DNA from: a virus
Taxonomy: Duplodnaviria; Heunggongvirae; Uroviricota; Caudoviricetes
Direction: 5' to 3' (one strand)
DNA: 31,116 bases
Virus record (IMG/VR): IMGVR_UViG_2690316344_000014
In this document: positions 9,408 to 25,819 of the stretch, one piece after another
How the letters are laid out: the number at the start of each line of letters is the position of its first letter
How positions within the stretch are numbered: position 1 is the stretch's first letter
Notes under the pieces: model-generated
Told to the model about the DNA's origin: nothing
Databases searched by the model: none
What the model saw: the letters and a program-made list of their open reading frames with translations, nothing else
Position numbers and translations under genes: made by a program

Positions 9408-10205
9408 TTACTCTCTGGAAGCTTTTCTTATCTCTCTTGGTGTTATATTAAAACGATTATGAAATCTTTCAGTAAAACGAGAAGGACACTTATAACCATT
9501 TTCTCTGGCAATCTCGCTTATAGGTTTTACCGTCGTTTGTATAGCAGACAACGCATTATTTAACCTCACATCGTCCAGTATACTTTGGAAACTTACCCCC
9601 TCGCTTGCTAGACGGCGATGTAATGTAGAAACAGAAATGTAGAGATATCGAGCAACCTTGTTTGCTGTCCATTTTGTGCCGGGTTCGGATAGCAGCAGGT
9701 TATAACAACGACTTATCAATGATTGTTTACTATATGATAAAAGTAAATGATTAACATGATTCACTCCTAACGAAAGTAGAACGCCCATTGCTAAGTGCTC
9801 CTGAATTTTAGTTGAGAAGCCTCGGGAAACAGATGTTTTTAGTTGCTCCCAACAATATATTAACTCAGGATTCTGAGGTAAAAAGAAACTTGTTTTGTTA
9901 CGTATTTGATCAGTTACCGTATAAAGTTTTTGGAAACTCTCAATTAAATCAATGGGTAAGTAAAGCATTTCTGCAAGATAAAGCCCTGCTTCAGGATAAT
10001 TCTCAATATAAAATTCATAACCACAAGGAAATAATATTATTTGATTATTATCAACAGTTAAAGTATGCGTCTCCCAATTGATAACTTTCTTTCCCTGACG
10101 GATACGACACAAAGCTGGCATAAGAGGCTTAACCCTATGAATCTCATGATGTTTATGCATCCGTATTTCTTCGATCTTTAAGTTAGTCTTACCTCTTGCC
10201 AGCAT
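9408..10205 (-). CDS. ybcM: AraC-family transcriptional regulator
   Basis: 265 aa with a C-terminal AraC-type HTH region ([43 protein letters not shown] ... [28 protein letters not shown]). Confidence 0.85.
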
Positions 10206-10214
10206 ACTCTCACC

Positions 10215-10766
10215 CTACTTTATCTCATAAACTGGTGTTATCTCAGCGGTTGCGATTTTATTAGCATTAAGCATATAACCAACTAACGCTCCGCTGGAGT
10301 TAGAATCTACAGGAATCTTTTCAGTTTTTAGAGCCCATACTTTAAACTGGTAATGATGTGGTTTATCTCCTTTAGGAGGACATGCGCCACCAAACCCAGC
10401 ATAGCCAAAATCATTTCGGCCTTGAACAGCACCAGTCGGCAGTTTTGTTCCATCACGTCTCCCTGCATCAACGGGCAAATATGTTACTGTTGCTGGAATA
10501 TTAACAACAGTCCAATGCCACCAACCACTGCCTGTAGGTGCATCTGGATCATATACAGTTACGGCAAAGCTTTTGGTACCTTCAGGAACACCAGACCAGG
10601 TTAATGAGGGCGATGTATTACCACCTTCACACCCAAATCCAGAAAAGACATGAGACGTTGTAAGTTGCTCTCCTGTTTTTATTTCATTACTAGTGACCTG
10701 AAATGCTGCAGCCTGCGCAGAAAATGTTATGAATGCCAATACAGTTGAAACGATAAGTGTTTTCAT
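10215..10766 (-). CDS. ybcL: periplasmic YbcL-like protein (phosphatidylethanolamine-binding / Raf-kinase-inhibitor-like family)
   Basis: 183 aa with signal peptide MKTLIVSTVLAFITFSAQAAAFQV and a conserved PDAPTGSGWWHWTV motif. Confidence 0.85.
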   Translation of the reverse strand: MKTLIVSTVLAFITFSAQAAAFQVTSNEIKTGEQLTTSHVFSGFGCEGGNTSPSLTWSGVPEGTKSFAVTVYDPDAPTGSGWWHWTVVNIPATVTYLPVDAGRRDGTKLPTGAVQGRNDFGYAGFGGACPPKGDKPHHYQFKVWALKTEKIPVDSNSSGALVGYMLNANKIATAEITPVYEIK

Positions 10767-10982
10767 AAAAACCTCTTTGTTATGACCTATCGTTATTTTA
10801 TTTGATATTCCTTTATCTCATTATGCATAAAGGCGCAATGTTCATGCAAAAGCAATCACAATTGTACCCCCAACCCAATTATTTGCCACAATATACACAA
10901 AGCACATTGATACTATCTAAAAACTCTGCTTTATTATTAGTAATACCTACGAAAGTCGGTGTTATTTTTTAACCTACCATTC

Positions 10983-11032
10983 AAAATACGTGACATACAC
11001 CATTTTGCTCATAATAATTTGTCACGTATTTT
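10983..11032. promoter_or_regulatory. 13-bp perfect inverted repeat with 24-bp spacer in the ybcL upstream region
   Basis: AAAATACGTGACA (10983-10995) and TGTCACGTATTTT (11020-11032). Candidate operator; no U-run, so not an obvious terminator. Confidence 0.3.
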
Positions 11033-11230
11033 CAGTATTTGAATCTGCGACCAAGAGTTCTCACCTAACAAATGATTAAGATTGTATAGCTCATTTACTA
11101 CCCCAATACAGCCGTACAAAACTCGCTTGTGGGAGCAAACAAAGTAATTACCCATTAAGTTTCGTCAAAGATAATTAATTCTGTCTTGCACTTTATCACC
11201 ATAGCATAACTTAAAATCCGAGATCATTAT

Positions 11231-12757
11231 TTAGAAATAAATCTCACCATCAACCATATATTTGAGAGCACTTATCGCCTGCTGGGCGGATATTACTTTC
11301 ATTAAAGGATAGTGTTTAAAAACAATGCCATTCATAAAATAGATATCACAGGTTTTATTATCCGTATTAATTATGATTTTTTCGAATGTTTTATAGGCAA
11401 GTGTACGGCATAACTCTCGTCCATTTTTACTGGTTAAGTCAATAGCATAAAAATCACTGAATGAATTTACACCTTTACTCTTCAAAGTTTTCAATGATAC
11501 CGAAGCCCTTCGTAATTCCTTATCTAATAGTCTTATTTTCTCTGCTATAGCGGTAACTTCAGGCGCGACAGACAATGCAACGATTAAATTATTAATTTTC
11601 ATCTGAAGCTCAATAATTTTTAACTCTAAAGTTTCATTAGCATCTTTCTTGTTTTCAACTGGTTGAATTTTGCTACAATTAAAAAGCAATTCATTAATGA
11701 TATTATAATCAACCAAATCTCTTTTTATTGATGGCCTGTCACATCGATGTAATCTTCTCATCGGACAAACATAATAGCCATGCAAACTTCCAGATGCCGC
11801 ATGAACAATCATGGTATTACCACAAGCCTCACACTTCATAACTGTTCGAAGTAGATTTATTAGCATAGGATTCTTGCTACTATTGCTAATACCAAAAGGT
11901 ACCAACCGAATTTCCTGTACAGCGTAAAACAAATCATCTGATATGACTCTGGGATAATAGCCAGCGATTTCACTTATCCCTTTCCCTCTTGCACGATATG
12001 AAGGTACGCATATACCTATCAGAGCTTTATTCGCTAATAATTTTTCAATTACAGAAGGTCCCCATGCACTTTCTTTTCCTGAGAAATTCTTTACAGCATG
12101 ATCATTTAAATACTTGGCTATTGCATTCAATGAGCGCCTTTCCATCCTGAGTTTAAAAATTAGCTCAATAGTTTTCACCCTGTCGGGGTCTGGAACAAAA
12201 GCCGTTCTTTTGTCATCTAAGGAGAGCCATCTCGGACAAGACGCCGTCATAATCGTACCTGATTCCAGTGCATCCTGCCGTTTTTTCTTCCATGATAATT
12301 TAACCCGACTTGACTTTATCTCGCTTTCTTCATTTGCCCTTTGTGCTATAAGTATGGCTTTTATTAATGAATATGGCTCATTCAAAGAGTCAATATTATA
12401 GACTGTATTGTCGCAAAGAGTTATAACATCAATACCGTGATTCAAAATCAATTTCAGACGTTCAATCGCTTCACCGACTTTTTCTCTTGAAAGTCTGTCC
12501 AGACTTTCAACTAACAATGTAGTTCCTGGCAATATATAACCATGCTCTATAGCATCTAAAAATTCCGAAAAAGCTCCTGATTGTGCATGCTTTCCTTTGA
12601 ATGCACTTAATCCTAAATCTTCATATGTTATGGTATCAAGATAATAATCACTATTTACCTTTAACCATTCAGCAATAAGTCTTCTCTGTCGGTTTAATGA
12701 GTCGCCAGACATCTGACCTGGTGATGAAAATCGCATATATGCTATGGCTTTTTTCAT
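11231..12757 (-). CDS. ybcK: large serine recombinase (resolvase/invertase N-domain plus recombinase and zinc-ribbon domains)
   Basis: 508 aa. N-terminal resolvase catalytic region (MKKAIAYMRFSSPGQ ... SLNRQ with the catalytic Ser) and a C-terminal Cys cluster (CEACGNTM ... YYVCP). Position matches DLP12 ybcK. Confidence 0.85.
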   Translation of the reverse strand: MKKAIAYMRFSSPGQMSGDSLNRQRRLIAEWLKVNSDYYLDTITYEDLGLSAFKGKHAQSGAFSEFLDAIEHGYILPGTTLLVESLDRLSREKVGEAIERLKLILNHGIDVITLCDNTVYNIDSLNEPYSLIKAILIAQRANEESEIKSSRVKLSWKKKRQDALESGTIMTASCPRWLSLDDKRTAFVPDPDRVKTIELIFKLRMERRSLNAIAKYLNDHAVKNFSGKESAWGPSVIEKLLANKALIGICVPSYRARGKGISEIAGYYPRVISDDLFYAVQEIRLVPFGISNSSKNPMLINLLRTVMKCEACGNTMIVHAASGSLHGYYVCPMRRLHRCDRPSIKRDLVDYNIINELLFNCSKIQPVENKKDANETLELKIIELQMKINNLIVALSVAPEVTAIAEKIRLLDKELRRASVSLKTLKSKGVNSFSDFYAIDLTSKNGRELCRTLAYKTFEKIIINTDNKTCDIYFMNGIVFKHYPLMKVISAQQAISALKYMVDGEIYF

Positions 12758-13013
12758 GGTGACACCTGCTAACGTATGCTTTTATAAACCTTAGTGGTGG
12801 GATATAATTTTTTGTTTATTTTTTATTTAAAAAGACAATTAAGGTCACATTATCTTGAATATACAACAATAATCGTATTGCAATTTTCTTACGCCATAAT
12901 CTTGAAAGCACAAAAGAATACATAAAAAATAAAGACATTAACAAAAAGCATAAAACGAGGCTCATATAAATATAAGAGCCTCCATATTTTAGTCGTTTAG
13001 AAACAAATTATTT

Positions 13014-13256
13014 TAATGTGGTGTGCTTCGTGACAATAAATTAATAATCAACACACCGGCACAAATCAACATCATGCCTATAATGGCTGGCAGGTCCAGC
13101 CGTTGGCCGAAAAATCCCCATGACAGTAAGCTAATCAGGACAATACCGACTCCTGACCAGATAGCATAAGCAATCCCTGTAGGAATATAAGCCAGCGTCT
13201 GAGCTAATAACCAGAATGATGCACAATAACAAATAATTGTACCAACAGATGGCCAT
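13014..13256 (-). pseudogene. emrE: emrE (small multidrug resistance transporter) 3' fragment, 5' end replaced by IS2
   Basis: Reverse-strand translation gives WPSVGTIICYCASFWLL ... ending LLSRSTPH-stop, the EmrE C-terminal ~80 residues. The reading frame breaks at the IS2 terminal repeat at 13257. Confidence 0.75.
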
Positions 13257-13966
13257 TGGATTTGCCCCTATATTTCCAGACACCTGTTATCACTTAACCC
13301 ATTACTGGCTTGCTGCCGTAGATATTCCCGTGGCGAGCGATAACCCAGTGCACTATGCGGATGCCATTCGTTATAATGCTCGAACGCCTCTGCAAGGTTC
13401 TTTGCTGCCGTTAACCCGTCTGGTTTGGGCATGACACTGATGTAGTCACGCTTTATCGTTTTCACGAAGCTCTCTGCTATGCCGTTACTCTCCGGACTCC
13501 GCACCGCCGTGCTCTTCGGTTCAAGCCCCAACATCCGGGCAAACTGCCGTGTTTCATTAGCCCGGTAGCATGAACCATTATCCGTCAGCCACTCTACTGG
13601 AGACGCCGGAAGCTCGTTGCCGAAGCGGCGTTCCACCGCTCCCAGCATGACGTCCTGTACTGTTTCACTGTTGAAGCCGCCCGTAGTGACCGCCCAGTGC
13701 AGTGCCTCACGGTCACAGCAGTCCAGCGCGAACGTGACTCGCAGTTTTTCTCCGTTATCACAGCGGAACTCGAACCCGTCAGAGCACCATCGCTGATTAC
13801 TTTCTTTCACAGCCACTCTGCCTGTATGTGCCCGTTTCGATGGCGGTACAGCAGGTTTTCGCTCAAGCAACAGCGCATTCTGGCGCATGATCCGGTAAAC
13901 ACGTTTGGCATTGATCGCAGGCATACCATCAAGTTCTGCCTGTCTGCGAAGCAGCGCCCATACCCG
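13257..13966 (-). mobile_element. IS2 partial copy (right end and 3' part of insD only, ~710 bp of ~1.3 kb)
   Basis: Reverse complement of 13257-13300 is the IS2 terminal sequence (...GGGTTAAGTGATAACAGGTGTCTGGAAATATAGGGGCAAATCCA). The InsD C-terminal 218 aa is intact. Similarity to IS2 stops after ...CGCCCATACCCG at 13966, where the lambda gam 3' end begins. Confidence 0.85.
13268..13924 (-). CDS. insD: IS2 transposase InsD, C-terminal fragment (IS3 family OrfB)
   Basis: [53 protein letters not shown] ... [24 protein letters not shown]. The N-terminal third of InsD and all of insC are absent. Confidence 0.85.
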
Positions 13967-14072
13967 TGCGTTTGATGACGATGTTGAGTTTCAGGAGCGC
14001 ATGGCAGAACACATCCGGTACATGGTTGAAACCATTGCTCACCACCAGGTTGATATTGATTCAGAGGTATAA
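13965..14072 (+). pseudogene. gam: gam 3' fragment (last ~35 codons of lambda Gam)
   Basis: Translates as [35 protein letters not shown]-stop, the lambda Gam C-terminus, directly upstream of bet. The 5' part is deleted at the IS2 junction. Confidence 0.8.
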
Positions 14073-14077
14073 AACGG

Positions 14078-14863
14078 ATGAGTACAGCACTCGCAACGCT
14101 GGCTGGGAAGCTGGCTGAACGTGTCGGCATGGATTCTGTCGACCCACAGGAACTGATCACCACTCTTCGCCAGACGGCATTTAAAGGTGATGCCAGCGAT
14201 GCGCAGTTCATCGCATTACTGATCGTTGCCAACCAGTACGGCCTTAATCCGTGGACGAAAGAAATTTACGCCTTCCCTGATAAGCAGAACGGCATCGTTC
14301 CGGTGGTGGGCGTTGATGGCTGGTCCCGCATCATCAATGAAAACCAGCAGTTTGATGGCATGGACTTTGAGCAGGACAATGAATCCTGCACATGCCGGAT
14401 TTACCGCAAGGACCGTAATCATCCGATCTGCGTTACCGAGTGGATGGATGAATGCCGCCGCGAACCATTCAAAACCCGTGAAGGCAGAGAAATCACGGGG
14501 CCGTGGCAGTCGCATCCTAAACGGATGTTACGGCATAAAGCCATGATTCAGTGTGCCCGTCTCGCCTTCGGATTTGCGGGTATCTATGACAAGGATGAAG
14601 CCGAGCGCATTGTCGAAAATACCGCATACACTGCAGAACGTCAGCCGGAACGCGACATCACTCCGGTTAACGATGAAACCATGCAGGAGATTAACACTCT
14701 GCTGATTGCCCTGGACAAAACATGGGATGACGACTTATTGCCGCTCTGTTCCCAGATATTTCGCCGCGACATTCGCGCATCGTCGGAACTGACACAGGCC
14801 GAAGCAGTGAAAGCTCTTGGATTCCTGAAACAGAAAGCCTCTGAACAGAAGGTGGCTGCATGA
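14078..14863 (+). CDS. bet: Red-beta single-strand annealing recombinase Bet
   Basis: 261 aa, [66 protein letters not shown]..., near-identical to lambda Bet over its full length. Confidence 0.95.
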
Positions 14864-15540
14864 CACCGGACATTATCCTGCAGCGTACCGGGATCGACGT
14901 GAGAGCTGTCGAACAGGGGGATGATGCGTGGCACAAATTACGGCTCGGCGTCATCACCGCTTCAGAAGTTCACAATGTGATAGCAAAACCCCGCTCCGGA
15001 AAGAAATGGCCTGACATGAAAATGTCCTACTTCCACACCCTGCTTGCCGAGGTTTGCACCGGTGTGGCTCCGGAAGTTAACGCTAAGGCGCTGGCCTGGG
15101 GAAAACAGTACGAGAACGACGCCAGAGCCCTCTTTGAGTTCACTTCCGGCGTGAATGTTACTGAATCCCCGATCATCTATCGCGACGAAAGTATGCGCAC
15201 CGCCTGCTCTCCCGATGGTTTATGCAGTGACGGCAATGGCCTTGAACTGAAATGCCCGTTTACCTCACGGGATTTCATGAAGTTCCGGCTCGGTGGTTTC
15301 GAGGCCATAAAATCGGCTTACATGGCCCAGGTGCAGTACAGCATGTGGGTGATACGAAAAGATGCCTGGTACTTTGCCAACTATGACCCGCGTATGAAGC
15401 GTGAAGGCCTGCATTATGTCGTGATTGAGCGGGATGAAAAGTACATGGCGAGTTTTGACGAGATGGTGCCGGAGTTCATCGAAAAAATGGACGAGGCACT
15501 GGCTGAAATTGGTTTTGTATTTGGGGAGCAATGGCGATGA
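14860..15540 (+). CDS. exo: lambda exonuclease (Red-alpha)
   Basis: 226 aa, [65 protein letters not shown]..., full-length match to lambda Exo. Start overlaps the bet stop. Confidence 0.95.
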
Positions 15541-15719
15541 AGCATCCTCACGATAATATCCGGGTAGGCGCGATCACTTTCGTCTACTCCGTTACAAAGC
15601 GAGGCTGGGTATTTCCCGGCCTTTCTGTTATCCGAAATCCCCTGAAAGCACAGCGGCTGGCTGAGGAGATAAATAATAAACGGGGAGCTGTATGCACAAA
15701 GCATCTCCCGTTGAGTTAA
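15531..15719 (+). CDS. lambda orf61-like small early protein
   Basis: 62 aa immediately after exo, the position of lambda orf61. Product unknown. Confidence 0.55.
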
Positions 15720-15883
15720 GAACGAGTATCGAGATGGCACATAGCCTCGCTCAAATTGGAGTCAGGTTTGTGCCAATACCAGTAGAAACAGACGAAGAAT
15801 TTCATACGTTAGCCGCATCCCTTTCACAAAAGCTGGAAATGATGGTGGCGAAAGCAGAAGCAGATGAGAGAGACCAGGTATGA
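15692..15883 (+). CDS. lambda orf63-like small early protein
   Basis: 63 aa, [63 protein letters not shown]. Position matches lambda orf63. Confidence 0.55.
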   Translation: MHKASPVELRTSIEMAHSLAQIGVRFVPIPVETDEEFHTLAASLSQKLEMMVAKAEADERDQV

Positions 15884-15959
15884 CAACCACTGAATGCATT
15901 TTTCTGGCAGCGGGCTTCATATTCTGTGTGCTTATGCTTGCCAACATGGGGCTTGTTCA

Positions 15960-16175
15960 ATGACACCTCAGCAAGAAAACGCCCTTCGCAGCATTGCCCG
16001 TCAGGCTAATTCTGAAATCAAAAAAGCCAGACAGCAGTTTCCGGATAAAAACGTCGATGACATTTGCCGTAGCGTACTGAAGAAGCACCGCGAAACGGTA
16101 ACGCTGATGGGATTCACACCGACTCATTTAAGCCTGGCGATCGGCATGTTAAACGGCGTCTTTAAGGAGCGATGA
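15960..16175 (+). CDS. lambda orf60a-like small early protein
   Basis: Internal start MTPQQENALRSIARQANSEIKKARQQFPDKNVDDICRSVLKKHRETVTLMGF...; position matches lambda orf60a. Confidence 0.5.
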   Translation: MTPQQENALRSIARQANSEIKKARQQFPDKNVDDICRSVLKKHRETVTLMGFTPTHLSLAIGMLNGVFKER

Positions 16176-16273
16176 ACATGAAAAGCAAAATCATCAGGGA
16201 GCTACAGGCTCCTTTTTTATTATTCGCATTCACCCTCAAGCGTATTAACCAACAATTCAGGGATTAATGGAAG

Positions 16274-16492
16274 ATGGCAGACATCATTGATTCAGCATCA
16301 GAAATCGAAGAATTACAGCGCAATACAGCAATAAAAATGCGTCGTCTGAACCACCAGGTTATATCTGCCACTCATTGTTGTGAGTGTGGCGATCCCATAG
16401 ATGAACGAAGACGCCTGGCCGTTCAGGGTTGTCGGACTTGTGCAAGTTGCCAGGAGGAGATCGAACTTAAGAACAAACAATGGGGATTGTGA
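16274..16492 (+). CDS. TraR/DksA-family C4 zinc-finger protein (lambda Orf73-like)
   Basis: 72 aa with CxxC-x17-CxxC (CCECGDPIDERRRLAVQGCRTCASC), the TraR/DksA C4-type zinc-finger layout. Phage homologues of this family are known to act on host RNA polymerase. Confidence 0.65.
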   Translation: MADIIDSASEIEELQRNTAIKMRRLNHQVISATHCCECGDPIDERRRLAVQGCRTCASCQEEIELKNKQWGL

Positions 16493-16539
16493 TGGCCTCA
16501 AAGCAGCAAATTTCAACATCGTCCAACTGAGGTGTAAAA

Positions 16540-16818
16540 ATGTTCAGAATCATTTTTCCTAACACCTGGTACGTCGACCACCACGGCACTCCCTGCAAAA
16601 TCCTGCGTTCTACCCACAACAAAGTTCACTACATCCGAAAAGGCAGAACATGTATCGCCAGCATGTTCCGCTTTAATCATGACTTTGAACCTGTGAATAA
16701 AGCTGATGCAGATCGGATAGCAGAAGAGATCGAAACGGCAGAACACATTAAGAAGTTACGTGACATGCGTTCAAAAAGCAGAGGTAACCATGGAATCATA
16801 CAGCCTCACACTCGATGA
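16540..16818 (+). CDS. small Cys/His-rich early-left protein (possibly Ea8.5-like)
   Basis: 92-aa ORF between the TraR-like gene and xis, with several His/Cys residues. Assignment is tentative, from position and size only. Confidence 0.4.
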   Translation: MFRIIFPNTWYVDHHGTPCKILRSTHNKVHYIRKGRTCIASMFRFNHDFEPVNKADADRIAEEIETAEHIKKLRDMRSKSRGNHGIIQPHTR

Positions 16819-17140
16819 GGCCTGTCAGTTTCTCAAGATATCCAGACCTACCGCTACCAACTGGATACGAACAGGCCGCCTACAGGCAACACGCAAAGAC
16901 CCCACTAAACTAAAATCTCCTTACCTCACAACACGACAAGCCTGCATTGCGGCGCTTCAGTCTCCGCTGCATACTGTCCAGGTGAGCGCGGGTGATGGCA
17001 TAACAGAGGAAAGAAAATGTCACTCTTCCGCAGAGGTGAAATATGGTACGCCAGTTTCACATTGCCGAACGGTAAAAGATTTAAACAGTCTCTTGGAACA
17101 AAGGACAAAAGGCAGGCGACAGAACTCCATGACAAGCTAA
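16790..17140 (+). CDS. xis: excisionase (Xis), HTH DNA-binding
   Basis: Internal start with a good SD (GAGGTAACC-ATG): [37 protein letters not shown]. Immediately upstream of int, but overlaps it by ~120 nt, so the true 3' end is uncertain and the gene may be frameshifted. Confidence 0.55.
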
Positions 17141-18180
17141 AGGCTGAAGCATGGCGGGTCAGCAAACTTGGTGAAATACCTGATATAACGTTCGAGGAAG
17201 CGTGTGTCAGGTGGCTTGAAGAGAAAGCACATAAAAAATCACTGGACGATGACAAAAGCCGGATCGGATTCTGGCTTCAACATTTCGCAGGAATGCAACT
17301 AAGAGACATTACTGAATCAAAAATTTATTCAGCAATGCAGAAAATGACGAACCGGCGTAATGAGGAAAACTGGAAACTCAGGGCAGAAGCATGCAGAAAA
17401 AAAGGGAAACCTGTTCCAGAATACAAGCCAAAACCAGCGTCTGTTGCAACGAAGGCTACGCATCTTTCATTTATAAAAGCCCTACTAAGAGCCGCAGAGC
17501 GTGAATGGAAAATGCTGGATAAGGCACCAATTATTAAAGTGCCTCAACCAAAGAATAAACGGATCCGCTGGCTGGAGCCCCATGAAGCACAAAGGCTGAT
17601 TGATGAATGTCCGGAGCCATTAAAGTCTGTTGTTGAATTTGCACTGGCAACAGGCTTAAGACGCTCGAACATCATCAACCTTGAATGGCAACAAATAGAT
17701 ATGCAGCGCCGGGTGGCATGGATAAACCCGGAAGAGAGTAAATCAAACCGCGCAATCGGCGTTGCGCTGAATGATACTGCATGTCGCGTATTGAAAAAAC
17801 AAATCGGGAATCATCACCGTTGGGTATTTGTGTACAAGGAAAGCTGTACCAAACCAGACGGAACGAAAGCGCCAACAGTAAGGAAGATGCGGTATGACGC
17901 AAACACAGCCTGGAAAGCGGCGCTGAGACGGGCTGGTATTGATGATTTCAGATTTCACGACTTGAGACACACCTGGGCAAGTTGGCTGGTTCAAGCCGGA
18001 GTCCCGTTGTCAGTGTTACAGGAAATGGGAGGCTGGGAGTCTATCGAAATGGTTCGTCGATATGCTCACCTTGCACCTAATCACCTTACCGAACACGCAC
18101 GGCAAATAGACTCGATCCTGAACCCATCGGTCCCAAATTTGTCCCAGTCAAAAAATAAGGAAGGTACTAATGATGTGTAA
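17017..18180 (+). CDS. int: prophage tyrosine integrase (DLP12 IntD-like)
   Basis: 387 aa with a C-terminal catalytic region ([42 protein letters not shown], i.e. HxxR ... Y). Ends 15 nt before the tRNA-Thr fragment and is convergent with it. Confidence 0.9.
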
Positions 18181-18194
18181 CTTATTGATTTAAA

Positions 18195-18243
18195 TGGTGC
18201 CGATAATAGGAGTCGAACCTACGACCTTCGCATTACGAATGCG
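18195..18243 (-). other. att core: 3' 49 nt of a tRNA-Thr(CGU) gene (thrW-like), not a complete tRNA
   Basis: Reverse complement is CGCATTCGTAATGCGAAGGTCGTAGGTTCGACTCCTATTATCGGCACCA: anticodon stem-loop (anticodon CGT), T-arm and CCA end. Sequence 5' of the anticodon stem does not continue as D-arm or acceptor stem. Confidence 0.8.
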
Positions 18244-18331
18244 TAAATTGATCTTGTAAAATCAATACCTATCGAATTTAAATGGATTTTTTGCCACAAT
18301 ATTGCCACAGTTCGTTAGGAATCAGACAGAA

Positions 18332-19405
18332 ATGGCGACTATACGCAAACGTGGTAACTACCAATGGGAAGCTCAAATCCGTAAACGTGGTTTTCCCTCT
18401 CAAACCAAAACCTTTAACACCAAAGTAGAAGCAGAAGCTTGGGCCAAAATGATCGAGTCAGAAATGGCGAGAGGAGTTTGGCTTAGCCGCAGCGAAGCGG
18501 AATCTACGACATTGTATGAAGCCCTAACGCGATATGAAAAAGAGATTGTTCCCGACAAAAAAGGGGCAGTGCAAGACCGATCATTGGTGCGGATACTAAA
18601 AGGCACTCAGCTGGCGAAAAACTATATGGCCAGCATCAGGAGTGCCGATGTCGCCAAGCTGAGAGATGAATGGTTGAAAATCTATGCTCCTGCAACCGTT
18701 TTAAGGCGTTTGGCCTTACTTTCTCATGTATTCAATGTTTCGCGGAAAGAATGGGGCATGGAGAGCCTGCTGAACCCCGTAGAGGCCATTCGCAAACCCC
18801 AACCCAAGAACTCCAGGACCAGACGCCTAGAAGCGCTGCCTGTAGTTTCTGAGAAAACCGGTGTTACGTCAGGAAAGCAAATAGCCAACGAGATCGAACA
18901 TATCATCGCCGCAACACATTCATTAGTATTGCCAGCAATCATTCTTCTGGCGTTAGAGACAGCCATGCGCCGTAGCGAAATCGCAGAGCTTCGATGGCGC
19001 TTTATCGATCTTGATCGGCGAGTTGCACATCTGCCGGATACTAAGAATGGTAATGCCCGCGATGTCCCTTTATCAACGAAAGCCATTACGATACTGTCCA
19101 GTCTCAAGGAACATTCTAAGCCAGCTGCTGATAAGGTTTTTGATATGCGTGCAGACGCGATTACCCGAGCTTTTGACCGAGCTGTAAAACGAGCCAGAGA
19201 ACGATACGAGAAAACAAACTCATTATGTGATGAATCTTTCCTTAAAGATTTAAGATTTCATGACCTTCGACATGAAGCAACTTCTCGACTTGCTGAAATT
19301 TTCCCTATGCATGAACTAACCAAAATTACAGGACATAAAGATCCAAGAATGCTAATGCGGTATTATCATCCAAAAGCTGAAGATTTGGCGTTAAAGTTGA
19401 AATAA
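18332..19405 (+). CDS. second tyrosine site-specific integrase/recombinase
   Basis: MATIRKRGNYQWEAQIRKRGF... with C-terminal catalytic residues (RRSE, LRFHDLRHEATSRL, MLMRYYH). The ORF can start at 18302. Lies just across the att fragment from the prophage int. Confidence 0.85.
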   Translation: MATIRKRGNYQWEAQIRKRGFPSQTKTFNTKVEAEAWAKMIESEMARGVWLSRSEAESTTLYEALTRYEKEIVPDKKGAVQDRSLVRILKGTQLAKNYMASIRSADVAKLRDEWLKIYAPATVLRRLALLSHVFNVSRKEWGMESLLNPVEAIRKPQPKNSRTRRLEALPVVSEKTGVTSGKQIANEIEHIIAATHSLVLPAIILLALETAMRRSEIAELRWRFIDLDRRVAHLPDTKNGNARDVPLSTKAITILSSLKEHSKPAADKVFDMRADAITRAFDRAVKRARERYEKTNSLCDESFLKDLRFHDLRHEATSRLAEIFPMHELTKITGHKDPRMLMRYYHPKAEDLALKLK

Positions 19406-19414
19406 GGACGTTGT

Positions 19415-20305
19415 ATGGATTATAAAAATAAGTTAGTTGATGCATCACCAAAATTAAACAACCCTCAACTATTGGCTATAATATACTTAATACCTTTTGG
19501 ATACTTGATTGTAGAAAACCCATTATGGCTAGAAAATATATACATTGCCGCTCCAATTTTCCTATCATCTATAGCTTTATTAACCAGTGTATACATAGGA
19601 TATCGTGATTTATTAAATAAAGTATTTAATAATGCAGTAGTTAAATGGGGCGTAACTGGCTTTACATATTCCGTATGCTTATGGATCGCAAAGTTTAAGC
19701 TTGACATAGCTTATGGTATAGTCCCAGAAAACCTTAATTACTCGACATTAGCTTATGCTTTCATGCTCTCATTTCCAATAGGGGCAATGATTTGTGCAAT
19801 TACAGTCTATATATACATATTTTTGCGAGATGTATCCCCAGCAAAAATAGTAATATCCTCTATGATTTCAGTATATATTGGAAGCTTGGCTCAACATCAT
19901 ATACAGGTGAACAATCTTCCTGAAAAAATAATATTAATAGGACTTATAATTATGGTCCCCTATAACATGGTCAATTTAGCTAGTTCATTAGTTATTAAAA
20001 GGAAATTTAATTTTAATCGTTTAGTATCAGGCTTATCCCTTTTTGCTGTGTCAGTTGCTCTTTTTATTATTAGCATGACAGCAATGAAATACATTGAAAG
20101 ATTTCAAGAAAAGTTTATTTTTCTCGATGCAAGAACATCTACGACATGTGGTAGCTCAGAAAGCAAATCTCTTTATATTGAAAAAAATGAAAATCAGTGT
20201 TATAAAATATCAGGAAATAAATTCTCGGAGTTAAGACTAACTCTTGTAGATAAAAACATCTTGAATATAAATAATAAAGGCACTTCAACTTATGAACAAA
20301 AATAA
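19415..20305 (+). CDS. hypothetical polytopic inner-membrane protein
   Basis: 296 aa, AT-rich codon usage, multiple long hydrophobic segments (LLAIIYLIPFGYLIV, AAPIFLSSIALLTSVYIGY, LIGLIIMVPYNMVNLASSLVI, LSLFAVSVALFIISM). No family recognised. Confidence 0.6.
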   Translation: MDYKNKLVDASPKLNNPQLLAIIYLIPFGYLIVENPLWLENIYIAAPIFLSSIALLTSVYIGYRDLLNKVFNNAVVKWGVTGFTYSVCLWIAKFKLDIAYGIVPENLNYSTLAYAFMLSFPIGAMICAITVYIYIFLRDVSPAKIVISSMISVYIGSLAQHHIQVNNLPEKIILIGLIIMVPYNMVNLASSLVIKRKFNFNRLVSGLSLFAVSVALFIISMTAMKYIERFQEKFIFLDARTSTTCGSSESKSLYIEKNENQCYKISGNKFSELRLTLVDKNILNINNKGTSTYEQK

Positions 20306-20519
20306 CCCTGCTAATTCATTTTCTATAGAAGCAAGGAAAGAAGCTTTTCGGAGAGCTGAAGCCAGTCTTTTTTATCAAGTAAAGATCCCAAAGGCTCCTC
20401 ATTTTTTAATGAAATAAAAACTAAGGTAATCAATGGAGAGCTAACCTATGAAGAGGCAAAGAGAGAAGTATTAAATTATCACATTGAACAATCTAAAAAT
20501 CAAAATAAAAAAGGCTAAC
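20292..20519 (+). pseudogene. small ORF split by a frameshift at a T6 run (41-aa 5' part plus 3' part in another frame)
   Basis: MNKNNPANSFSIEARKEAFRRAEASLFYQVKIPKAPHFLMK-stop. Adding one T at the T6 run (20405-20410) restores a 75-aa ORF ending ...NGELTYEEAKREVLNYHIEQSKNQNKKG. Function unknown. Confidence 0.3.
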
Positions 20520-20539
20520 ATTTAGTTAGCCTCTTCTCA

Positions 20540-20752
20540 CTAGTGAGCTATTTTATAGTCCCTTAATGCATTTTTAAGTAACTCCGTTTGCTCATCAGCA
20601 TCATCATAATTATAAATTCCCGTAGCAGAATAATACTCTTCGATGCATAGAATATTTATCAATGGTTCACAAATCTCTTTAATAAACTCCTTGTTGTTAT
20701 CGGCAAAAATAATTTTTATTCCTTCCAAAACAAAGCTATTATAATCAGCCAT
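20540..20752 (-). CDS. hypothetical small acidic protein
   Basis: 70-aa ORF 70 nt downstream of trbL on the same strand. No recognisable family. Confidence 0.4.
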   Translation of the reverse strand: MADYNSFVLEGIKIIFADNNKEFIKEICEPLINILCIEEYYSATGIYNYDDADEQTELLKNALRDYKIAH

Positions 20753-20782
20753 TATCCACCTCCTTACAGGTGTTTAGTGGAA

Positions 20783-20814
20783 GCGTCAGTTAACGTTACC
20801 GCGCTAACTGACGC
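20783..20814. repeat. hairpin: 10-bp inverted repeat with 12-nt loop between trbL and the 70-aa ORF
   Basis: GCGTCAGTTA (20783-20792) and TAACTGACGC (20805-20814). No flanking U-run. Confidence 0.3.
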
Positions 20815-20821
20815 GCCTAAA

Positions 20822-22225
20822 TCAAGATTTTTTACTGCCAGTTAAACTATCACCCTCAAACTCATCCTGTTCGTGGTTAGTCTGACGATCGGCTGTGTGT
20901 TTACGTATTTGATTCGCTATTTCCCCACCAACGGTCTGTTGTCTTCGGATAGTATTAGTACTTCCCTTCATCATCTGATACTCCGAAGCTCCGTTAGACA
21001 ACCCGCTCGCCATGTGAGAAGCCATGCGGCCAGCTCGTGAGAATGATGAAGCAAACCCCTGGCTTCCTCCGCTGACGCTACCTGTATTACTCCCTGCAGA
21101 AGAACCACCGGAACCGCCTGATGGTTGTCCTCCAGAAGTATCTACGGAACCGGTATCTTCCCCTCCGCCAAATCCTCCACCTGAACCACCTTTATCACCA
21201 GAACCAGATTCTTCGGCCATCGCCGCTTGTGCAGATTCAAATGCTGCTTTTAGAGCGGAAGCACCACCACTGACTTGAGCTGTAGCACTTATTGCCATTG
21301 CCCCAGCGCCACTGATTGCAGTAGTAGCAGCGCCAGTAATCATACCTGCTCCAAAACCACCGATCCCTTGTAAGGACGCTCCTCCAACAACGCCTGATAA
21401 CAACAACGGTAATTTATTCGTCAATACTAAAAGAATAATTGACGCCAGAAGTAAAACAATAAGACTATTAAGATCAGGAATATCATTTTTAATAATAGAA
21501 AAATACTGATCTATAAATGATTGCCCAATCCCAATGATTAATGTCATCGTAAATAACTGAATACCAATCGATAATACTGTGCGTAAGTAATTTATTGCTA
21601 TATCAGAAGTCCATTTCGAGCCACCAAACCCAAGCAAAATAACTCCTGCATAACACAACACCCATGCAGAAACTAACATTATTAGCATATTTATCGCGAT
21701 AAGCGCCATTACTACTAATACTATTATCGCGACGGTTATCATAATGGTCGAAATCATTGGAGACCAAATTGATGCTGCTGAACTGACCTTTGTTAATATC
21801 ACAAATGCCATATCCACTATGCTGGAGGGTGAAATACCAGTACTTGTTCCTAAAGCATTTGCTGCAAGTTGTCTCATTGAGTTAATTATAGATTGTGATA
21901 TGGCTGGGCCGTTGATTAAAAGATAATAAAAAAAACCAATCACGGCAAAAAAACGAACTATTTCTGCAAGTGCACTGATTAAACCTTCCCCTTGCATCGC
22001 CAACATACCAAATGTCCAAACCATACTTATTAATACCACCCCCCAGAAGAGCCAATTTGCATAATCACCAATTACTAATGACCATGTGCTGGCTACTTGC
22101 TGAAACTTATCTAATAACGTATCAAGTAATCCGCTACTATCTAATTGACCAGCATAAGCATTTACAGAAAACAAAAAAAACATTCCTAAAAAAGTGAGCT
22201 TGCTTACTATTCTCATAATTACCAT
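20822..22225 (-). CDS. trbL: P-type conjugative transfer protein TrbL/VirB6
   Basis: 467 aa. N-terminal signal plus multiple transmembrane helices, then a C-terminal Gly/Ser-rich low-complexity tail (GGSGGGFGGGEDTGSVDTSGGQPSGGSGGSSAGS), typical of TrbL. Confidence 0.8.
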   Translation of the reverse strand: MVIMRIVSKLTFLGMFFLFSVNAYAGQLDSSGLLDTLLDKFQQVASTWSLVIGDYANWLFWGVVLISMVWTFGMLAMQGEGLISALAEIVRFFAVIGFFYYLLINGPAISQSIINSMRQLAANALGTSTGISPSSIVDMAFVILTKVSSAASIWSPMISTIMITVAIIVLVVMALIAINMLIMLVSAWVLCYAGVILLGFGGSKWTSDIAINYLRTVLSIGIQLFTMTLIIGIGQSFIDQYFSIIKNDIPDLNSLIVLLLASIILLVLTNKLPLLLSGVVGGASLQGIGGFGAGMITGAATTAISGAGAMAISATAQVSGGASALKAAFESAQAAMAEESGSGDKGGSGGGFGGGEDTGSVDTSGGQPSGGSGGSSAGSNTGSVSGGSQGFASSFSRAGRMASHMASGLSNGASEYQMMKGSTNTIRRQQTVGGEIANQIRKHTADRQTNHEQDEFEGDSLTGSKKS

Positions 22226-22392
22226 TCTCGCTTAGGGCTAGGATTGTTATTGCCACGCAGGGCACATTTATCGTAGTTATGTTCGTTCAATTTATTCTCT
22301 GGCGTCGATAAACAATCTTCATCTTTTTTATCGCAAGAGCATAGAATTAATGAAATTATTAGAATAAAAATGACCAAAAGTTTATCTTTCAT
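22219..22392 (-). CDS. small putative lipoprotein in the TrbK (entry-exclusion) position
   Basis: Found by hand (57 aa, below the ORF-track cut-off): MKDKLLVIFILIISLILCSCDKKDEDCLSTPENKLNEHNYDKCALRGNNNPSPKREW. Hydrophobic N-terminus followed by Cys; sits between trbJ and trbL as trbK does in IncP plasmids. Confidence 0.45.
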   Translation of the reverse strand: MKDKLLVIFILIISLILCSCDKKDEDCLSTPENKLNEHNYDKCALRGNNNPSPKREW

Positions 22393-22403
22393 TCAGCTCT
22401 CCC

Positions 22404-23198
22404 TCACCAAATTCGCTTCGGGCTTGGTGTGTTCTCGCCAGCTAACGCTTTTTCATCAGCGACTATTTGTTGGGCTTCTTTATCAGCCTCAGCCTGTGCC
22501 AGTGTTGCTGCAGCGTTTTGCTGAGCTACCAGAAGCGAGCGGATTTGCAGCAACTGGTTCGTTTGAGCACTGGCAAGCTGGTTAGCGGCCTGAATAGCTT
22601 CCATTTGCCCTTGTGCGCCGGTTGCCTGCGTTTGTAAATCTGCAAGGTTGTCAGCATCGCTTTGCAGTGTTTCCTGCTGTTCGTCAAGAGCCTTAAATAC
22701 AGCGTCATTGGCCTTTTTACGTGCCTCAGAGCTGTTCTGTTCAGCTTTGCGCAGTGCGCTAATTTCATCCGCAGTACATTCAACATTACTGTTAAAGCAC
22801 GGTGATGAGCGGTAGTAATTCACGTCCTGATAACGTTTCAGATATGAATCAAGACTCCCGGCCTGGTTTTTGTAGTAATTTAGGGTGTCCTGCGCCTGCA
22901 ACAATTTGTTGATGGTCGAATTGGCCTGATCCCAGATATAGGCTGCAGGTGCGACTGTATTTTTGAGCATGTTTTCATACTGCTGCAGCTGCGTCTGGTA
23001 CTGCTGGATCTGTTTTGCCACAGCCTGAACGTTGTTGACTGCGCTGATTGTGGTCTGCACCACATTAGTACCATCGATTACAGGGATACCGGCTGTCGCC
23101 GGTAATGCCATGATGGACGCCAGGAAGGAAGCAGCTAATGATTTTTTAGCTGCTAAAATCCCTCTCAGTGATGAAAATACTCGGAGCATTAACTTCAT
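22404..23198 (-). CDS. trbJ: P-type conjugative transfer protein TrbJ (VirB5-like)
   Basis: 264 aa, signal peptide then a coiled-coil-rich Q/A-rich sequence (QIQQYQTQLQQYENMLKN ...). The trbJ-trbK-trbL order is conserved. Confidence 0.75.
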   Translation of the reverse strand: MKLMLRVFSSLRGILAAKKSLAASFLASIMALPATAGIPVIDGTNVVQTTISAVNNVQAVAKQIQQYQTQLQQYENMLKNTVAPAAYIWDQANSTINKLLQAQDTLNYYKNQAGSLDSYLKRYQDVNYYRSSPCFNSNVECTADEISALRKAEQNSSEARKKANDAVFKALDEQQETLQSDADNLADLQTQATGAQGQMEAIQAANQLASAQTNQLLQIRSLLVAQQNAAATLAQAEADKEAQQIVADEKALAGENTPSPKRIW

Positions 23199-23279
23199 TT
23201 GCCCACCTCAAATTTAACTGATTATTAATATTGAAAACTCGTACTTTTAACAAATACAGATATTTAGGAAACCATAAAT

Positions 23280-23645
23280 TTATTTATTCAAGATTCTATC
23301 CATAATATTTCTTAGTTCTTGTCTGGTTGATTCTATTTTAGCAAGCAACGTTTTTATCAATGAGGGTGAAAAATCAACTGTGCGTGGATCGTTAGCTAAC
23401 CACAGTTTAAGTAACCCACCAAGTCGACCAAGATCAGCATTTACTCGGCTAAGCTCTACAACCTGTTCAATATCTACCATAGACTCAACCTGATAACCCA
23501 TTGCTACTTTACGAATGAAACTCGCTACACTTAAGCCAGATGCTTCTGCATTATCCTGGATTTGCGCTTTTTCATCTGGCAAACAATAAACTTTAATTGG
23601 TGTACTATTTTTTCTAGTCTGAGAAACGGTCATATCATTCTCCAT
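23280..23645 (-). CDS. traJ: relaxosome accessory oriT-binding protein, TraJ/MobC family
   Basis: 121 aa with PIKVYCLPDE and DLGRLGGLLKLWL motifs resembling RP4 TraJ / the MobC family. Sits immediately beside an RP4-like oriT. Confidence 0.75.
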   Translation of the reverse strand: MENDMTVSQTRKNSTPIKVYCLPDEKAQIQDNAEASGLSVASFIRKVAMGYQVESMVDIEQVVELSRVNADLGRLGGLLKLWLANDPRTVDFSPSLIKTLLAKIESTRQELRNIMDRILNK

Positions 23646-23660
23646 ACAGGCGGTAGCCGA

Positions 23661-23765
23661 TCAGCCTCGCAGAGCAGGACTCCGTTGAGCAGCTCAGCTG
23701 CGAATAAGGGAAGGTAAAGTAGAAGCACCGTTTACGGTGGGCCTACTTTACATATCCTGCCCTAC
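23661..23765 (+). other. origin of transfer (oriT), IncP/RP4 type, with TraJ-binding inverted repeat and nic site
   Basis: CAGCCTCGCAGAGCAGGACTCCGTTGAGCAG ... GCGAATAAGGGAAGGTAAAGTAGAAGCACCGTTTACGGTGGGCCTACTTTACATATCCTGCCC closely parallels the RP4 oriT as I recall it from mob vectors. Inverted repeat GTAAAGTAG (23714-23722) / CTACTTTAC (23743-23751), then the ATCCTG/C nick consensus at 23754-23760. Confidence 0.8.
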
Positions 23766-23915
23766 ATTTGCCGTTGTGAATCTGTGTACGTATTGTGTAT
23801 TCCTGTGTACTCAGTGTGTTTTCCTAAAGCATTTGTGCAGGATTAGTAGTGTAAAAATGTGCAGCATATGTGTTTATTGGAATGGAAATTATTTGAATGA
23901 CCCTAAGAGATATTT

Positions 23916-24197
23916 TTATTCTCGCGGCTTGGGTTTTGGCGGCCTGCCACGTTTCCTTTGACATCTATTTATCTCTTTCGCTATATCGTCATTTTCTGTC
24001 TTTGACTCAACAGATTTATCTATCCAGTCCTTAACATCTTCTTTACGCCAGAGAAGACGTTTATTACCGGGAAGACGGCATCTTGGTGGAAGACATTTTG
24101 GATTTCGCGTTGCATCACTGCGGATACTTTTTACAGTTTTCTTTAATGCAAAAGCCAACTCTTCAACGGTTATAAGTTCTGGCATAACTGATTTCAT
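23916..24197 (-). CDS. alpA: AlpA-family DNA-binding protein (excisionase/transcriptional regulator-like)
   Basis: MKSVMPELITVEELAFALKKTVKSIRSDATRNPKCLPPRCRLPGNKRLLWRKEDVKDWI, the AlpA/MerR-like winged-HTH pattern, with a basic C-terminal tail. The ORF can start at 24209. Confidence 0.7.
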   Translation of the reverse strand: MKSVMPELITVEELAFALKKTVKSIRSDATRNPKCLPPRCRLPGNKRLLWRKEDVKDWIDKSVESKTENDDIAKEINRCQRKRGRPPKPKPRE

Positions 24198-24231
24198 CGA
24201 AGAACCCATCTCTCAGTAGAAATTTGAGGAT

Positions 24232-24259
24232 TTTAGCGGCTAAAATTTTAGCCGCTAAA
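24232..24259. promoter_or_regulatory. 28-bp perfect palindrome immediately upstream of alpA
   Basis: TTTAGCGGCTAAAA-TTTTAGCCGCTAAA, 23 nt upstream of the longest alpA start. Candidate operator. Confidence 0.45.
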
Positions 24260-24509
24260 GTTTGCTAACCAACGTTATGAATTGAGAATAATTAAAACTT
24301 ACTGGCAAAAAGAATAATGTCAACAGGGTTTTTATTCATCGGATTCTTACTCCATATGAAATTGGTTTTATTGACCGATTTCTGAATGACACTAAGGTTT
24401 TAATAATTCCTTTAATCTTTTTGGTTATATAAAAGGTTAAAGATCAGGTTAGAGAGGTGTGGAAAAGCGATATATTCACTTGTTTACTATGACAATTTTA
24501 AATTATATC

Positions 24510-24572
24510 CGTACCTCAAATGTCATGAAAGCGTACCTCATATGTCATAAAGGCGTACCTCATATGTCATAT
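24510..24572 (+). repeat. three tandem ~22-bp direct repeats (iteron-like)
   Basis: CGTACCTCAAATGTCATGAAAG, CGTACCTCATATGTCATAAAGG, CGTACCTCATATGTCATAT, head to tail. Confidence 0.7.
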
Positions 24573-24615
24573 AATAAAAAATAAGCAAACAAGTTATACA
24601 CAATATTATTAACAG

Positions 24616-24865
24616 AATCTGTGGATAAATACACAGATTATACATGATAAAATAGATTGTTTAGCTAAACTAAATAACAATAAATAAAATGAAACAAAAT
24701 GTAAATAACAGGGGGGGGGGTGTAAGTGACTTATAAATTTGGTTAGCTAACCTTTATAAGAAACACTGTTTGTAAATGATTCATTTCTGACAACGGATAT
24801 ATCGAATTTGAGTAAGAAAAACACTTCAACTAACCTTACTCTCTGATTTGTTTAGCTAAACAAAT
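24616..24865. promoter_or_regulatory. cluster of palindromes upstream of the higA-like gene, three sharing a TTAGCTAA core
   Basis: AATCTGTG-n8-CACAGATT (24616-24639); GTTTAGCTAAAC (24659-24670); CTTATAAA-ttt-GGTTAGCTAACC-TTTATAAG (24730-24760); ATTTGTTTAGCTAAACAAAT (24846-24865, 20 bp perfect). Confidence 0.5.
24711..24720. repeat. G10 homopolymer tract
   Basis: Ten consecutive G in an otherwise AT-rich intergenic region. Confidence 0.9.
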
Positions 24866-24889
24866 TACTGTAAGGAATCCGATGACGTT

Positions 24890-24904
24890 AAAAAAAAGGG
24901 GGGG
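24890..24904 (+). repeat. A8G7 homopolymer tract overlapping the ribosome-binding site of the higA-like gene
   Basis: AAAAAAAAGGGGGGG ends 2 nt before the ATG at 24907. Confidence 0.9.
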
Positions 24905-24906
24905 AT

Positions 24907-25164
24907 ATGAGGACAATAAATGCTGCACCTTCAACTGTCGGAGAGATTTTATACGAAGAATTCTTGAAACCATTGGATATGCCTCCCGCAAGACTTGCTG
25001 AACTGATGGATACATCATATGAAAAAATTTGGGAAATAATTAAAAATGAGCGAAATATAACTCTTGAAGAAGCTATTCAACTCTCGATAATTTTCAATAC
25101 AGATGCATCTTTTTGGGTGAAACTGCAAGAGCTACATGAGGCATGGTTTAATAAACAAAAGTAA
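24907..25164 (+). CDS. HigA-like XRE-family HTH protein (antitoxin-like / transcriptional regulator), apparently orphan
   Basis: 85 aa, MRTINAAPSTVGEILYEEFLKPLDMPPARLAELMDTSYEKIWEIIKNERNITLEEAIQLSIIFNTDASFWVKLQ, the HigA/VapI-type pattern. No HigB/RelE-like ORF found on either side. Confidence 0.7.
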   Translation: MRTINAAPSTVGEILYEEFLKPLDMPPARLAELMDTSYEKIWEIIKNERNITLEEAIQLSIIFNTDASFWVKLQELHEAWFNKQK

Positions 25165-25364
25165 GGTTATTCAATTAGATTACTTAGTCCTAATACATAA
25201 TTTGCTTTGAATAATACTCATACATTTCTAACGACTTATTAAAGCGATAATATACTCGGACGACTGAGGATTAAAAAATCCGATCCTTGATGATGGGAAC
25301 CTGCCATGACTAGGTAAGTCATTTTAGCAGTGGTACAGGCGACATTAAAAGCCGATATAAAGAA

Positions 25365-25397
25365 GCCCGACTGGTAAGATCGGGCCTTTTTATTTTT
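25365..25397 (+). terminator. rho-independent terminator
   Basis: GCCCGA-ctggtaaga-TCGGGC followed by CTTTTTATTTTT. Confidence 0.5.
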
Positions 25398-25782
25398 CCA
25401 CTCTGGCCTGAATGGAACATCCTACATTAGACGTTAAGATCTTACATCTAATTATCCGAAAATACTAATGGATGCGTAGTTGCATTTGACCTGACCGCCC
25501 ATTTGCGGGTTACTCTACCATCGCCAATAAAGTCCGGCTACTCGAATTCGGAAGTATTAGGCTATAGGTCATAAACCTGAATAACTGCTATGTGCTGAAG
25601 CGGATAAAGCTGACATCATTATGCACCAATCAACTCGGTGTAAGTCAGCTAGTTGGTGATGGAGTGACTTGTCAATAGTTGTAGCCCCTACCAGTGCATC
25701 GGAGATTCTTGAGTGTAACCTTAGTTGCTTTAATCAGAAGTAAAGGAAACGTACTATGAAAATCAGTACTCTTAATCAAGAG

Positions 25783-25812
25783 ATCCCCCGTTCTCTCACG
25801 GAAAAGGGGGAT
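25783..25812. terminator. hairpin just 3' of the 420-aa gene
   Basis: ATCCCCC-n16-GGGGGAT beside the stop at 25820; T-rich sequence follows on the plus strand. Confidence 0.3.
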
Positions 25813-25819
25813 TGAATTT

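Follow-up and report, generated by a model that had tools for sequence, protein, structure and literature searches.

A thrW 3' fragment as the probable internal attachment junction between a defective prophage and a plasmid-derived island in E. coli

When a piece of a tRNA gene is found between two tyrosine integrase genes, a question is immediately raised as to what that piece represents: the point at which two independently acquired mobile elements meet, an internal part of one composite element, a tRNA-like gene in its own right, or simply the product of a deletion or of faulty assembly. Such an arrangement is present in a 31,116-nucleotide stretch of DNA (here termed the 'window'; IMG/VR record IMGVR_UViG_2690316344_000014), which corresponds to the first 31 kb of contig CXZL01000026.1 in assembly GCA_001286425.1 (where the record coordinate equals the window position plus 2). 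An initial annotation of this DNA, made from the letters alone, had proposed that only the 3' 49 nt of a tRNA-Thr(CGU) gene are present at positions 18195-18243, and that they constitute a copy of an attachment (att) core rather than a functional gene. The analysis described below bears out both parts of that proposal, and leads with high confidence to the reading that two elements are arrayed in tandem at thrW, downstream of proBA in E. coli, with the fragment as the att junction between them.

When reverse-complemented, the letters at 18195-18243 (TGGTGCCGATAATAGGAGTCGAACCTACGACCTTCGCATTACGAATGCG on the plus strand) match the 3'-terminal 49 nt of E. coli thrW, the gene for tRNA-Thr(CGU), without a single difference. 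This 49/49 identity, on the minus strand, was checked against the intact gene in E. coli E54, against the 76-nt thrW sequence and against the intact gene of the same contig. In the tRNA sense the core reads ATTCGTAATGCG...GGCACCA; its first base is C28 of the anticodon stem and its last bases are the CCA end, so that it takes in the greater part of the anticodon arm together with the variable loop, the T arm, the 3' acceptor strand and the CCA itself. The 5' 27 nt of the tRNA are absent, and unrelated AT-rich DNA is found in their place. At the other end, the identity extends one position further, in that A18194 matches the base that follows the CCA at the intact thrW gene. The match is a single copy in the window (a second core copy is lacking there even when three mismatches are allowed), and a chance match to the 49-mer was encountered in none of 100 shuffles. 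Because ARAGORN finds no tRNA in the window, and because the Rfam tRNA model (RF00005) scores the fragment at 22.3 bits against a gathering score of 29, the sequence is considered to be a fragment and not a tRNA gene.

The functional gene had been presumed to lie outside the window, and that is where it was found. [quoted passage not shown] The search for further repeats of the core that had been suggested together with that for the intact gene was likewise successful for the right-hand element: in a 20-kb stretch of the contig there are exactly two copies of the 49-nt core, in direct orientation and 13,621 bp apart, and the two copies flank an island to the right of the fragment. On the left, the contig begins 2 nt before window position 1, and the far end of the element on that side, along with its distal att copy, lies off the contig.

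The left-hand element is a lambdoid prophage, the body of which occupies positions 1-16759 according to PHROG and Pfam gene calls. Its content includes a terminase, lysis genes, a porin, a Q antiterminator, a ybcK-type serine recombinase, an IS transposase (13268-13924) and bet/exo, among others, with PHROG matches to the terminase large subunit, Bet, the exonuclease and the transposase. An open reading frame of 687 amino acids at 420-2483 (minus strand) matches the terminase large subunit over residues 1-518 and the C-terminus of a tail fibre over residues 518-686; this fusion implies that the whole block of head and tail genes has been deleted and that the prophage is cryptic. The element is thus a defective, DLP12-like lambdoid mosaic without its morphogenesis genes. 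No gtr genes are in view on the contig.

At the right-hand end of this prophage, an excisionase gene (xis; 16760-17140, plus strand; phrog_2907, E 1.4e-51, with a PF12728 HTH_17 match on the same contig) overlaps the start of a tyrosine integrase gene, here termed int1 (17017-18180, plus strand; PF00589, E 3.4e-48), in a layout identical to that of phage SfIV. The int1 product belongs to the SfIV/SfII/SfI/SfV/P22 family of thrW-targeting integrases, with amino-acid identities of 99.5% to SfIV Int, 99.0% to that of SfII, 97.9% to that of SfV and about 90% to those of ST64T and P22-like Salmonella phages. The gene is transcribed towards the fragment and ends at a TAA codon (18178-18180), 14 nt before it. 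The spacer between that stop codon and the 3' end of the tRNA sequence (18181-18194) aligns to the SfIV attP with a single mismatch, as part of the phage's int-side att arm. The window and the SfIV attP are in fact collinear through int, this short arm and 46 nt of tRNA sequence, after which they diverge; the length of that identity equals the length of the attP core that has been published for SfI, SfII, SfV, SfX and P22, phages for which thrW, next to proA, is the integration site (PMC3636060), and beyond it the island arm takes over. The gtr-side arm of SfIV, which reads TATAAGAATCCGCTTCTAATTCAAAGC in the window's plus orientation, would lie to the right of the core. Given this SfIV-type attP geometry, a phage residing alone at the site should have its int gene abutting an intact tRNA gene.

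On the other side of the fragment lies a plasmid-derived island of 13.6 kb, which starts at 18244, continues past the window for about 700 nt and has at its fragment-proximal end a second tyrosine integrase gene, int2 (18332-19405, plus strand; PF00589, E 1.5e-26). Its ATG at 18332, which is also the start used by RefSeq on identical sequence, is 88 nt from the fragment, and an alternative TTG start at 18302 is 58 nt from it. The initial annotation was therefore correct that an integrase gene adjoins the fragment on each side (int1 at a distance of 14 nt on the left and int2 at 88 nt on the right, each with a PF00589 domain), and mistaken that the two face it: both are on the plus strand, such that int1 runs into the fragment and int2 is transcribed away from it. 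Over the catalytic domain, the two integrases are 29.5% identical, and int2 belongs to a lineage unrelated to that of int1; its identity to phage integrases does not exceed 41%. A shift from balanced to AT-rich composition had also been placed at this point. The overall difference is real (45.7% GC for 1-18194 versus 37.6% for 18244-31116), but it does not arise at the junction: int2 has a GC content of 45.6%, and the fall occurs near 19.4 kb, about 1.2 kb to the right. The prophage additionally contains an AT-rich block of its own (9-13 kb, 37.2% GC).

Several observations tie int2 to its attachment site. The int2 protein is 100% identical in E. coli strains E54 and STO_Bone1B, and homologues with identities of 92-100% are found in Enterobacter vonholyi, E. 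quasiroggenkampii, two Pantoea species and an Enterobacterales metagenome-assembled genome (the last of which contains only the first 76 residues of int2). The identities in Enterobacter and Pantoea are 92-99%. In all of these genomes, E. coli included, the distance between int2 and the thrW fragment is 88 nt, and the fragment has a length of exactly 49 nt. The Pantoea fragments carry Pantoea's own thrW substitutions, and in Ca. Pantoea haifensis the intact thrW gene is 2.7 kb away. The recurrence of 49-nt thrW fragments beside int2 homologues in different genera indicates that int2 is tied to the att site independently of the phage. The identity of the island with thrW amounts to 49 nt, three beyond the 46-nt phage core; since the phage core stops at 46 nt, the fragment's bases 18241-18243 are not from the phage attP. 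The fragment is thus a hybrid att site, with the int2 arm of the island on one side and the int arm of the phage on the other.

The int2-proximal arm of the island (18244-18331; 88 nt, 30.7% GC) is conserved, at an identical spacing, upstream of the int2 homologues of Enterobacter and Pantoea. An inverted repeat, ATTGAT-N8-ATCAAT, can be read at 18247-18266, and two direct repeats of TTGCCACA, 11 bp apart, are located at 18291-18298 and 18302-18309; these direct and inverted repeats might, by inference only, be candidate integrase arm sites or regulatory sites. The possibility that the inverted repeat forms a conserved hairpin, or a mimic of a tRNA D arm, was considered and rejected, as it is not kept in the Pantoea copies. 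On the opposite side of the core, the 3' end of int1 contains two direct repeats of GTCCCA, again 11 bp apart (18130-18146), and a similar pair of GGCACA repeats is seen at other thrW junctions (in STO_Bone1B and E54). Together, these short direct repeats flanking the core are possible arm-type binding sites for the integrases.

The remainder of the island within the window (19406-31116) was described by comparison with Rfam, Pfam, PADLOC and the RefSeq annotation of E54, in which the corresponding region is 99.65% identical; across other E. coli strains, the island is 99.65-99.8% identical. The int2 gene is followed by a gene for a 296-aa protein and by a vbhA-like antitoxin gene (20292-20518, plus strand) that is frameshifted by a 1-nt deletion in the window and is intact, encoding 75 aa, in E54; the frameshift may reflect either real decay or an error in the draft assembly. 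There follow a 70-aa open reading frame (20540-20752), a PtaRNA1 RNA located between that frame and trbL (20746-20818, plus strand; 48.6 bits in Rfam, above gathering), trbL itself (20822-22225; Pfam TrbL), trbJ (22404-23198) and a traJ/NikA-like gene (23280-23645; Pfam NikA-like), upstream of which is a traJ-II leader RNA (23663-23762, minus strand; 93.1 bits in Rfam, above gathering). The two RNAs are hallmarks of a transfer module of IncP origin, and they hint that an oriT is close by.

Further upstream of traJ, a protein of 93/97 aa (23916-24209, minus strand) is without a Pfam match. By eye, it bears an AlpA/Xis-like winged-helix signature (...RLLWRKEDVKDWI...), and it might be considered a candidate excisionase or regulator of the island; the allele carried by this contig is rare, being present in 40 blocks of the public collection. 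Between this gene and the thrW-proximal end of the island are higA and the genes for a 420-aa protein and an MtlR-like regulator, and the end itself is occupied by a candidate defence cassette, Hp3-Hp2-Hp1 (28372-31116, minus strand), with matches to PADLOC models PDLC03006, PDLC03005 and PDLC03004 at E-values from 1e-79 to 1e-176. Hp1 carries a PDDEXK_GAPS4 domain (PF26115), and the cassette is likely to be anti-phage cargo of the island. The Hp1 protein was also encountered in 614 blocks of the public collection, mostly beside proA. In strain MB19, insertions have enlarged this island to about 25 kb, among them a dynamin-family pair, an ABC-three-component system, IS903B and a Tn10-type tet(B) region; these insertions indicate that the island can serve as a platform for resistance and defence genes.

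The repeats, the arm identities, the two integrase families and the intact tRNA gene on the contig are all seen directly, as are states of single occupancy in other genomes, and they suggest a scheme for how the array would have been formed. Strand exchange by both tyrosine integrases would take place within the tRNA gene, at the anticodon loop or close to it, a position at which we place the crossover because both blocks of identity begin there and continue to the 3' end, as would be expected if the 3' half were replaced from attP. Each attP would hold a copy of the 3' part of the tRNA, with a length of 46 nt in the SfIV/P22-type phage and of 49 nt in the island, such that each integration would rebuild an intact thrW gene on the proA side and leave behind a 3' fragment at the opposite end. 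In the direction of the tRNA, the locus consists of proB, proA and the intact thrW gene; the island, ending with int2; the fragment (18243 to 18195); and int1, xis and the rest of the prophage. Beyond the prophage there would presumably be a third copy of the core (off the contig, and proposed by analogy with strain TA8571, described below), followed by host DNA. The junction would act both as the distal att site of the island and as the proximal att site of the prophage. In principle, and by inference as regards their present-day competence, each element could be excised by its own Int, or the two could leave jointly by recombination between the outer repeats. Because the prophage is defective (as indicated by the terminase/tail-fibre fusion and the IS), the array may be partly fossil and no longer mobile.

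The occupancy of thrW in other genomes provides the states expected of such a scheme. The phage is found alone in H1827/12, where the order is xis, int1, intact thrW, proA and proB, as predicted from the attP geometry; the island is found alone in STO_Bone1B, where the host gene yagP is followed by the fragment, int2 and, at the other end of the island, thrW. These single-occupancy genomes, together with the match to the SfIV attP, support the original suggestion that two elements were serially integrated at one tRNA site. In strain 600029, the island is accompanied in the second slot by a CP4-6-like element (its ykfI/yafW end). The int2 arm, together with int2 and a 49-nt fragment, is present in 95 of 5,426 complete E. 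coli genomes, in which it is always single and always chromosomal, and the combination of the island with an int1 prophage, joined by the same hybrid junction, is found in 17 complete E. coli genomes. When matching E. coli records were sampled at even intervals, an int1-type arm stood beside the core in about a third of them (15 of 40 rows).

In TA8571, the 251-nt junction is 100% identical to that of the window, the prophage is related and further deleted, and another copy of the core is found 21.3 kb to the left, joined to the gtr-side attP arm of SfIV, which is the arrangement expected of the distal att site; that arm is then followed by genes other than gtr. In MB19, there is no third repeat at the far end of the prophage, which is truncated there by an IS3 element. 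A separate observation in E54 is that a third copy of the thrW core is present in inverted orientation (locus L003, 4734-4765, minus strand), joined to the SfIV gtr-side arm and adjoining a partial integrase, with IS66 and an Avs2 gene alongside; this copy indicates an inversion or some further rearrangement within the thrW array. In Enterobacter vonholyi, only a C-terminal int1-like remnant is present beside an intact island. As these varied occupants illustrate, and as reviews have already stated (PMC7545054), thrW is a multi-occupancy hotspot.

Against this background, it might still be argued that the two halves were acquired in one step, as a single composite element that has two integrases of its own and a tRNA-like sequence in its interior. 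The recurrence of the same junction in 17 complete genomes would be in keeping with that idea, and the int1-like remnant beside the island of E. vonholyi makes the co-transfer of the pair conceivable. We nevertheless regard it as very unlikely: each half occurs alone at thrW, with the junctions of an independent integration (in STO_Bone1B and H1827/12), a CP4-6-like element replaces the phage beside the island in 600029, and the neighbouring prophages differ widely while the island is nearly identical. In E. vonholyi itself the remnant is 81% identical to int1 while int2 is 99% identical, which points to separate histories. Even less credence is given to the view that the truncated tRNA is an artefact of assembly, or a pseudogene produced by simple deletion rather than by site-specific integration. 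The source is indeed a draft assembly with a contig end at the start of the window; but an identical junction is found in closed genomes, the break falls exactly where the core identities of the SfIV attP and of the island predict it, and the contig also contains an intact copy, as a direct repeat at a distance of 13.6 kb. The chance that this view is correct is close to negligible.

A further alternative is that the junction encodes a working chimeric tRNA or tRNA-like RNA, with a 3' half from thrW and a 5' half from the island arm. The RefSeq/PGAP annotation contains a 112-nt 'tRNA-Ser' at window-equivalent positions 18195-18306 (minus strand), which corresponds to the junction plus 63 nt of the island arm. 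The same feature is annotated in MB19 (locus L001, 21696-21807), E54 (locus L003, 18046-18157), TA8571, 600029 and most of the 30 genomes with an int2 arm among the matches listed, and the island arm does offer 5 to 6 of the 7 acceptor-stem pairs, as well as a hairpin in the position of a D arm. Against these points, ARAGORN finds nothing at default or lowered thresholds, and reports a 'tRNA-Thr with a 52-nt intron' only when forced to do so, with introns permitted and the threshold set to 50%; the sub-gathering Rfam match cited above is in a different register; a length of 112 nt is far beyond those of bacterial tRNAs; the inverted repeat of the arm is without compensatory changes in Pantoea; and the acceptor-stem match is within chance (about 0.2-0.3 by our own estimate, allowing for the offsets tried). 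A functional chimera is accordingly held to be highly improbable, and the 'tRNA-Ser' is probably a false positive that recurs because the T arm and the acceptor strand within it are genuine. In STO_Bone1B, the acceptor part has a 1-nt deletion, and the 'tRNA-Ser' annotation is absent.

If the fragment is taken to be the internal junction of a tandem array, the order in which the two elements arrived can also be considered. The island probably arrived second, into the intact, proA-proximal copy of thrW, as judged from the decay and diversity of its neighbours and from one precedent with other phages: the island is near-identical between strains and genera, and the int1 prophages that adjoin it are diverse and decayed, down to the C-terminal remnant in E. 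vonholyi; and in Shigella, where tandem integration of SfI and SfX at thrW has been produced experimentally, the incoming SfI inserted into the SfX lysogen at the proA-side att site, attL (PMC3306764). A stronger version of this idea, that the island, when a P22/Sf-type prophage is already resident, preferentially enters the intact copy of thrW adjoining it, seems quite unlikely. If it were true, the host half of the prophage's proximal att site would be replaced by island DNA, which could either lock the neighbour in place and promote its decay into a cryptic prophage, or enable the pair to be excised jointly between the outer repeats and to be mobilised in cis. Decayed int1-type prophages do recur beside the near-identical island in E. 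coli, Enterobacter and Salmonella, an observation that is compatible with preferential entry, and equally with the plain sharing of a popular site.

Each part of this array has its counterpart among systems that have already been described. Like the integration modules of the Sf phages and P22 (PMC3306764, PMC3636060), the left-hand element targets thrW next to proA through the same 46-bp core, ATTCGTAATGCGAAGGTCGTAGGTTCGACTCCTATTATCGGCACCA, and it shares with the Sf phages an Int that is 98-99.5% identical and the xis-int-attP layout; unlike those phages, its body is a defective DLP12-like lambdoid mosaic. Like the SfI/SfX tandem, the array has an internal hybrid att site between two elements, but the partner here, rather than a second phage, is an island of plasmid origin whose core is 49 nt long and whose integrase is unrelated.

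The closest counterpart of the island, and of the pairing, is StmGI_0323, a thrW island of Salmonella Typhimurium that is found in strain L1864 in tandem with a P22 prophage related to SPN9CC (PMC5575072). The two islands share the site and the gene order HigA, 97 aa, TraJ (121 aa), TrbJ (264 aa), 57 aa, TrbL and 70 aa (PMC5575072, Table 4), a series that runs on in both to a terminal tyrosine recombinase; and in both cases the neighbour is a prophage with a P22-family integrase. They differ in their thrW-proximal cargo, which in StmGI_0323 consists of ORF1-4, including a 202-aa recombinase, and in the present island consists of the 420-aa protein, the MtlR-like regulator and the Hp1-3 cassette. 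The island described here is a StmGI_0323-type thrW island, as matched by gene order, sizes and names, and not by sequence.

[quoted passage not shown] Like them, the present element is a chromosomal island with an integrase, an IncP-type traJ-trbJ-trbL set and defence cargo, and is found in near-identical form in several genera. It was nonetheless rejected as a PIME: int, trbJ and trbL are present, but neither an AlpA nor a replicase domain was detected in any island open reading frame scanned with Pfam, and its site is thrW rather than guaA. Other thrW islands of E. coli, such as CP4-6, PAI-536-thrW and the GI-thrW of ST131 (PMC7545054, PMC4134206), occupy the same hotspot with different integrases and cargo, and are alternative occupants of it rather than relatives of either element described here.

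Tandem occupancy of thrW, the 46-bp Sf/P22 core, both integration modules, this type of island and even the pairing itself are therefore already published, and the value of the present finding is mostly one of bookkeeping, with no new biology implied. Its uses are nevertheless practical. The borders of two mobile elements are fixed (18244 and a point about 700 nt outside the window for the island; 18194 for the prophage, which extends to the left of it), and a recurrent RefSeq misannotation, in which a 112-nt 'tRNA-Ser' is drawn over an att junction in most of the island-bearing E. coli genomes listed, is exposed. Finally, thrW is documented once more as a slot that holds several elements in series, an arrangement of the kind that prophage and island callers tend to merge or to split in the wrong place.
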